This document shows positions 6,050 through 6,940 of a stretch of DNA of 64,000 nt, one piece after another. The notes below the pieces were generated by a model that saw nothing but the letters and a program-made list of their open reading frames with translations, made no database searches and was not told where the DNA came from. Numbering within the stretch: position 1 is the stretch's first letter; each line of letters opens with the position of its first letter. Source of the DNA: Octopus sinensis (lineage: Eukaryota); contig NC_042999.1 of assembly GCF_006345805.1 (NCBI RefSeq), positions 99,944,001 through 100,008,000 on the forward strand. Direction: 5' to 3'. The translations under genes were made by a program, and so were the position numbers.

Positions 6050-6940
6050 AAGCGGGGATAGAAAACTCCGAATGACCCATCCTAGTTTTCTTTGTGTCGT
6101 CTGTCTGGATGTTTTGCACTCTCGTCCCATTTTTGCATTCATATATATAAATATACATATATATATATTATATATATATATATATATATATATATATATA
6201 TACATATATTATATATATATATATATATATATATATATATATAATATATATATATATATATATATATATATGTAGATAGATAGATAGATAGATAGATATA
6301 TAAGACTCTATTATTATTTCTATTCTTAATTCTTTTCTTATTTCTATCAGCCTTTTCCCTCTTCGTTCATTCCACTCTTCGTTCTTTCGCTCTCCCTCTC
6401 TCACATTTCCCAGCCTTCTCTTTATGCTCACTTTCCCTCCTCTTTCACTTCACTGTGTCTCTTTTATTTTTTCTCGCCCCTTCTTAATTCTTCTATCCCT
6501 CTGCCTCTACCTCTCTCTCTTCTCCCCCGACCTTTCTTTCTTGGTTCCACTAACATCCGTGCAACATCTATATTCCCTCTTGGCCCTGTCAAACCTTATG
6601 TCCCTGCCGTAAAGCTTTACTTCCACACACGCCAGCTTAATTTAATTCGCCGTCAATCGAAAGAGACTTGTTGTTATGTTCTGTTATTTGTATTTGTGTA
6701 ACATTCTCCGTTTCTTTTCTTCCTTGTTCTCGCACACATTCACTGCTTTTTTCCAAGTAATCTAATGCTCTTAGTATAATTTTTCCTTGGGGCTGGTCAG
6801 ATTGGAGCAATCTCGAGTATAACCAGTCGAAATTGCAAAGATAATCTAGAACACAACTGAGAATAGAAAACTGCTTGTTTTTTGTATCGTCTGTCTGGAT
6901 GTTTTGCGTTCTTGTCCCATTTTTATATTTTTATATATAA
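6050..6940 (+). mobile_element. Non-coding repeat, subfamily B of the structured-RNA element (partial tandem; probable PLE pseudo-LTR/retrozyme)
   Basis: The 3' block (TCGTCTGTCTGGATGTTTTGC...GTCCCATTTTT) occurs at ~6095-6135 and ~6885-6925. A pyrimidine-rich spacer lies between. 6781-6870 is homologous to 7769-7860. Confidence 0.6.

Follow-up and report, generated by a model that had tools for sequence, protein, structure and literature searches.

The window (the whole 64,000-nt stretch of Octopus sinensis contig NC_042999.1 that we analysed) contains an insertion of a repeat with a putative hammerhead ribozyme of unusual strand order, followed by a partial tandem of a second subfamily of this repeat. 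The features are as follows, the parts of the ribozyme being listed in the order in which they are read.

6056..6975, plus strand: subfamily B insertion (approximate boundaries), with a partial upstream copy (~6056-6140, beginning within the core), a TA run, a pyrimidine tract and the ribozyme in that order, then, 3' of the ribozyme, a U-rich tail and the beginning of the next unit.
6737..6752, plus strand: 5' strand of closing helix V (a distal CATTC part and a U-rich proximal part), placed by flank folding and pair counts.
6753..6790, plus strand: hairpin IV, abutting stem II, placed by flank folding, with double changes in 7/15 pairs.
6791..6796, plus strand: stem II 5' strand GGCTGG (G10.1 onward), detached from CUGANGA and pairing with 6823-6828, placed by a blind test.
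6797..6811, plus strand: stem III 3' strand, with the distal helix (6797-6804), kink-turn GA (6805-6806), proximal helix (6807-6810) and U16.1 (6811).
6812, plus strand: C17; cleavage is predicted between 6812 and 6813, by analogy with the hammerhead core and from truncation junctions.
6813..6818, plus strand: stem I 3' strand TCGAGT, from covariation and the alignment of B copies.
6819..6822, plus strand: 4-nt linker between the outer ends of stems I and II (ATAA in 27/29 B copies).
6823..6836, plus strand: stem II 3' strand CCAGTC (6823-6828), GAAA (6829-6832, G12-A15.1) and proximal stem III 5' strand (6833-6836).
6837..6849, plus strand: kink-turn bulge AAA (6837-6839), GA (6840-6841, in 29/29 B copies) and distal stem III 5' strand (6842-6849).
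6851..6856, plus strand: stem I 5' strand ACACAA, decayed, with two mismatches (majority ACTCGA, 20/29).
6857..6863, plus strand: core C3-A9, CTGAGAA, decayed by G8A (majority CTGAGGA, 23/29).
6864..6872, plus strand: proximal part of the helix V 3' strand, the distal part being deleted from the window copy.
7769..8740, plus strand: subfamily A partial tandem with two further ribozyme copies at 808-nt spacing, predicted cuts after 7800 and 8608.

The copy at 6737-6872, with its cleavage triplet ATC at 6810-6812, is a decayed member of subfamily B. It differs from the subfamily majority at 6 of 82 positions (6797, 6827, 6848, 6853, 6855 and 6862), and ~13 nt are missing after 6872, a deletion which partly orphans the 5' strand of helix V, whose predicted partner begins immediately 3' of the core. 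The majority was taken from a BLAST search of the octopus genome itself, which yielded 1,643 candidates; 40 of them were scored and 30 retrieved. The 29 copies other than the window copy are the top matches to a decayed query and not a random sample. The window copy is probably inactive, because G8A disrupts the C3-G8 pair of established hammerhead chemistry, and it carries the weight of one decayed data point and no more.

The original prediction, whose start at 6737 is the first base of helix V, had forecast a subfamily B consensus of ACTCGA-CTGAGGA, and this was recovered, with ACTCGA in 20/29 and CTGAGGA in 23/29 copies and with stem I complementarity and CUGANGA both present in the majority; the stem I 5' strand reads ACTCAA in 6/29. 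Its account of the pairing also held at each point. Stem I is TCGAGT/ACACAA in the window copy and TCAAGA/TCTTGA in subfamily A, four of its six pairs form, and two pairs changed in a compensatory manner (pair 3 from A-T to G-C, pair 6 from A-T to T-A). The mismatch ascribed to CpG decay is a G to A change at 6855, within a CpG of the majority sequence, which recurs in 6/29 copies; the other mismatch is a transversion (T to A at 6853). The kink-turn bulge changed from GAG to AAA with both GA dinucleotides retained (the bulged-strand GA in 29/29 copies), the linker is still 4 nt (ATAA, 6819-6822), stem II (GGCTGG/CCAGTC) keeps six pairs including one G-U, and the core decay to CTGAGAA at 6857-6863 was read correctly. 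The subfamily A copies (~7769-7932 and 8512-8740) carry TCAAGA/TCTTGA, the bulge GAG and CTGAAGA. On their own, two changed pairs are weak evidence for selection on structure, and stem II shows no double change among the copies within the window; that structure was under selection in the progenitor elements is supported much better by copies outside the window, with double changes in all three stems. Elsewhere in the window, an inverted repeat at 22934-23922 (395 nt, 98% complementary, 199 nt between the arms) could be an inverted Penelope-type pair.

The element consists of ~780-nt non-coding tandem repeats of the Penelope/retrozyme type, present in thousands of copies. Exact patterns for subfamilies A, B and C returned 3,908 matches and the reversed control none, the subfamily D pattern 1,117 (control 1), the pattern for a second superfamily, family N, 3,107 (control 10), a Naiad-type motif, taken from the published Octopus Naiad consensus, 352 (control 0) and a wider pattern 8,763 (reversed control 2). 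In true tandems the distance from cut to cut was 753-808 nt. Ten long B copies had sequence in common as far as ~600 nt upstream of the ribozyme and wrapped round into their own tail. Besides a U-rich tail and a TA junction, the units have a pyrimidine tract and a conserved CACGTG, and the B unit showed no open-reading frame. Inverted neighbours were frequent around the copies, as were flanks of (TA)n. Copies of subfamilies C and D are nearly identical to one another, and these subfamilies are therefore young. Family N (L239-L268, L102, L112, L313) forms ~830-880-nt tandem units with identical wiring, and both family N and the Naiad-type motif keep this wiring, including helices IV and V, in different sequences, with 13-16 nt from the cut to G12.

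Several further observations concern these units. B and C share a short GAAA-tetraloop hairpin ~150-200 nt upstream of the ribozyme (6655-6665 in the window; the L087 units), and all of A, B, C and N have the CACGTG 3' of the pyrimidine tract (8284 in the window); both are possible promoter or protein-binding elements. One sequencing contig (run X7, L087 place 1455) holds a subfamily C unit spanning the predicted cut and bears what is presumably a template-switch cDNA adapter, a weak hint that the unit is transcribed from one or other strand. Directly 5' of a subfamily C tandem, the minus strand of L090 (~850-1330) has another Penelope-like remnant as an inverted pair, which includes a minimal hammerhead-like motif of ordinary form. 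A metagenome scan gave 118 matches; none of the 80 examined had 6/6 stem I pairs, and they were taken as chance.

The strands run in the order stem II 5', stem III 3', UH, stem I 3', linker, stem II 3', GAAA, stem III 5', stem I 5', CUGANGA, which reads as hammerhead parts placed in a non-circular order (cut site, GAAA, CUGANGA). The hammerhead core letters CUGANGA, GAAA and NUH, with the A15.1-U16.1 pair, are constant across subfamilies, the G8A of the window copy aside. N7, which had been called freely variable, is A, G, U or C depending on the subfamily as the remaining core letters stay constant, and position 17 is C, A or U among the subfamily copies displayed. An Rfam scan of the window gave no match at the gathering score; types I-III have the circular order C-G-S, whereas the order here is S-G-C. 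Two other readings were rejected by eye, namely an HDV-like fold (no P3 hairpin ahead of the second strand) and a back-splicing event that would rejoin A9 and G10.1 (no donor 3' of the core, acceptor not conserved). Nested folding did not return the three crossing helices, which is impossible for that method, and gave competing folds instead; in one B copy the core paired with the upstream pyrimidines.

In this arrangement the stem II partner sits 20 nt upstream of the predicted cut, and CUGANGA is not joined to the stem II 5' strand within 0-2 nt, helices V and IV probably replacing the link. The partner was predicted in writing before the flanks of diverged copies were fetched. The diverged set held 36 distinct copies, 30 of them with a stem II 3' strand other than CAGCC, and these 30 include A-D copies that are merely mutated, one with an upstream deletion and one from family N. 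The upstream strand paired with the stem II 3' strand at 5/5 positions in 10/30 copies and at a minimum of 4/5 in 25/30, whereas the strand 3' of the core reached 5/5 in 0/30 and at least 4/5 in 8/30 when six offsets were allowed; at offsets 0-2 it again reached 5/5 in 0/30, and at least 4/5 in 1/30. Only 1 of 5,000 permutations attained the observed upstream-pairing total, a figure not to be read as a p-value, since the copies are related. In one copy (L319), four stem II pairs changed simultaneously. In a 14-row alignment the downstream stem II was at chance level (66% paired, 190/500 shuffles).

Stems I, II and III find support in covariation. In an alignment of 17 copies, hand-chosen to span the subfamilies and left unadjusted, 80.8% of cells in the core pairs were paired and double changes occurred in 16/25 pairs (stem II 4/6, distal stem III 4/8, proximal stem III 4/5 and stem I 4/6). 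Double-change cells numbered 60, compared with 25.1±4.1 after shuffling, and none of 500 shuffles was as high, although kinship between copies inflates such tests; slid controls were 18-43% paired. A further covariation run of the core had a similar outcome, and the measure of further pair types was not above the shuffles (463/500). The young subfamily D contributes a compensated double change in proximal stem III.

The main novelty, absent from the original prediction, is the break between A9 and G10.1 and the extra helices that likely bridge it. These two positions form a metal site in hammerheads, which speaks against a break there. We folded both flanks of 28 copies with the core masked; in most, hairpin IV ended 0-2 nt before G10.1, and helix V was formed by the strand just 5' of hairpin IV and a strand beginning 0-3 nt after A9, and several old or truncated copies did not give this result. 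In a 17-row alignment, 79.2% of the 29 pairs of helices IV and V were formed, with double changes in 12/29 pairs and 20 double-change cells against 11.5±2.8 after shuffling (0/500); these counts are partly circular, as the helices were derived by folding many sequences and then counted on them. The distal part of helix V had no double change, and its junction-proximal pairs failed in 6/17 rows. Support for helices IV and V is weaker than for the core, and the pairing suggests that the A9-G10.1 link is likely replaced by hairpin IV together with closing helix V. A short closing helix AGYTTT/AARRCT, sought in 16-nt upstream flanks, did no better than permuted partners (787/5,000); these flanks were too short to reach helix V.

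Taken together, we consider it likely that intact copies form a hammerhead core with a predicted cut after AUC, in which a helix and a hairpin stand in for the A9-G10.1 link. How the three crossing helices would close depends on stem III. A 3-nt bulge followed by tandem GA/AG pairs between two helices occurs at the sequence level in B, A and most subfamilies, and in the window copy the bulge 6837-6839 with GA 6840-6841 fits what we take to be the kink-turn consensus; the GA pairs are also retained in the Naiad-type motif. The kink-turn of the original prediction is frequent, yet not universal. Subfamily D has lost one kink-turn GA and has a plain bulge instead, making it a natural test of the need for a kink-turn; in family N a stem III loop AGUA/GAA, presumably akin to a bulged-G motif, takes its place, and in a Clytia Naiad record a side hairpin does so (by eye). 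Because the kink-turn is altered in D and absent from N, the one-molecule geometry is not uniform, and the common requirement seems, from these sequences, to be a bend in stem III. With such a bend, distal stem III would double back until its outer end touches those of stems I and II, and the knot could close within one molecule. An unlikely alternative keeps the identical core and wiring with no sharp bend in stem III, activity being confined to strand-swapped dimers of neighbouring units or to a protein-bound form. The elements do occur in tandem, the canonical kink-turn is missing from D and N, minimal Penelope hammerheads are described as acting as dimers in the accessible text of Cervera and de la Peña 2014 (PMC4209133), and one Penelope hammerhead requires protein (PMC11167929); however, the GA pairs persist in the Naiad-type motif as well as in most subfamilies, each unit is closed onto itself by helix V, and stem III is long and stable here, which it is not in the dimer-dependent forms.

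Truncated copies with a TA run directly 5' provided insertion junctions, which were counted by eye among the matches listed. At 22 of 23 distinct loci among these matches, the insertion started at the predicted cut or up to 10 nt after it (3 at 0, 3 at +2 and 16 at +5 to +10), and the remaining one (1/23) fell within the 20 nt before it. Minus-strand matches, which count each locus once, numbered 752 for starts 0-10 nt after the cut and 24 for starts 4-20 nt before the cut, a rough ratio as the second junction pattern omits subfamily D and uses a longer anchor. Most junctions (+5 to +10) lie in the TA-like linker, which favours microhomology. A step at this position would be expected if the reverse transcriptase ran off the 5' end left by cleavage, and may be read as an indirect sign of cleavage. 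We regard as very unlikely the proposal that a hammerhead-derived structure which no longer cuts gives the reverse transcriptase a signal to bind or to stop, the truncations reflecting an enzyme stalled in the knot. Cleavage was dispensable for insertion of one Penelope element in vitro (PMC11167929), and most junctions lie 5-10 nt inside the motif, as this proposal would have it; against it, the catalytic positions are all fixed, with N7 alone free and position 17 C, A or U, and an enzyme that stalls should do so on the 3' side of the knot, but the observed step coincides with the predicted cut. An ordinary type-SGC hammerhead, with stem II formed by the strand after CUGANGA (GGCU 5 nt downstream in A and C, AGGG in N), can be drawn for A, C and N, but is scarcely credible, as this pairing is missing in B and in the Naiad-type motif, stays at chance across subfamilies as noted above, and in family N involves an AGGG already accounted for by helix V.

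A self-cleaving core of this kind would cut read-through transcripts of the ~780-nt tandem units into monomers, which might be circularised, and a Penelope-like reverse transcriptase/endonuclease, most likely of a Naiad, would copy them into (TA)n sites in trans. In the accessible parts of Craig et al. 2021, Penelope-like elements show (TA)n targets, partial tandems and inverted copies, cephalopod Naiads are called long inactive, and Naiads are given no canonical hammerhead, only 'core' or 'half core' flags (PMC8557442). In the accessible part of its supplement we read by eye the terminal few hundred bases of 18 Naiad consensus sequences, most record names being deduced from record order. The split fold was visible in 5/18 of these 3' ends (two Octopus, an imperfect Euprymna, one Clytia and one Morbakka), and all of stems I-III, hairpin IV and helix V form pairs in the Clytia and Morbakka records. 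Hammerhead cores of ordinary order with long stem II inserts, which standard descriptors would miss too, were seen in three nematode or spider ends, and the other 10/18 were unparsed or had nothing visible.

The octopus element resembles Naiads in its fold, TA target, partial tandems and inverted copies, as far as these records go; it has no open-reading frame, and the likeness rests on fold and target and not on sequence. All 20 Naiad-type loci examined here were short remnants, with no intact Naiad among the 20 regions, despite the youth of subfamilies C and D. Pfam gave no match for two fragments lying upstream of Naiad-type motifs, and peptide words from these loci were not found in the searchable supplement text of PMC8557442. 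Family N was also sought within autonomous elements with a C-terminal endonuclease (Neptune-like); the descriptor found the split motif in 0/20 such regions, one of which held an antisense family N piece, and the main young family of this type in the genome, which has intact 780-aa frames, carries an ordinary minimal hammerhead of its own without the split motif. A young Penelope-like family with a C-terminal GIY-YIG domain (L270, L272, L275, L276, L288) has several members with open frames of 760-780 aa. It carries a U3-A8 minimal hammerhead, and CCAAT-, TGACG- and TATA-like boxes are plentiful in its 3' region.

On balance we favour, with rather less assurance than the fold itself, the wider reading that this is a natural hammerhead which is non-circularly permuted and opened inside its core, that it has been rebuilt on a four-way junction together with a kink-turn and works in living animal cells, and that it is ancestral in a branch of Naiads reaching from cnidarians to cephalopods. 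If true, this wiring would be the seventh, lying outside the scheme of six permutations, and the motif would be among the most abundant ribozymes of this genome, would overturn the assumption that the three blocks of the hammerhead tolerate no interruption, and would place non-circular ribozyme permutations in animal genomes at high copy number. It would also explain why standard searches miss ribozymes in several Naiads, the fold supplying the ribozyme thought absent. The role of hammerheads in Penelope-like elements becomes testable, since insertion junctions point towards the site of the cut. A motif that may bind kink-turn proteins and whose two ends exit by a single helix at A9 would in that case be a new scaffold for RNA switches.

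The split-core fold was not found in the openly accessible literature that we searched. In the accessible text of Eckert et al. 2023, CUGANGA and its flanking stem strands are assumed to be inseparable beyond 1-2 nt, which tells against the split, and their motifs are placed in no known organism's genome except for one GCS candidate (PMC10085705). The octopus motif is closest to type SGC of that study (which also describes CSG, GCS and HRIMA-1). As described there, the blocks come in the order cut site, GAAA, CUGANGA in both, and the two further share three helices that cross one another, a short linker between stems I and II and all core letters. The octopus motif differs from the published type in that its Block C is split, with the stem II 5' strand upstream and joined to the outer end of stem III, in having helices IV and V at A9/G10.1 and a kink-turn in stem III, and in occurring in a eukaryotic genome at thousands of copies. 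The S, G, C order and the short linker are present, but because an intact Block C is lacking we do not file the motif as SGC; nor does an interaction helix connect stems I and II at their free sides, the candidate in family N covarying by eye with the upstream and not the downstream strand.

Among known mobile elements, two comparisons stand out, each drawn from the accessible parts of its sources. Penelope/Neptune minimal hammerheads (Cervera and de la Peña 2014, PMC4209133) also lie at a terminal repeat and allow one unpaired base between A9 and G10.1, but have the classical order, a tiny stem III and dependence on dimers. Non-LTR retrozymes (bioRxiv 10.64898/2026.07.22.740005; PMC7229834) consist of non-coding monomers in tandem, each with a single hammerhead, and stem from Penelope-like elements or depend on them. 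The octopus units share this organisation, being non-coding tandem monomers with one ribozyme each; non-LTR retrozymes, however, carry classical type I hammerheads, whilst the 753-808-nt octopus units carry the rearranged form.
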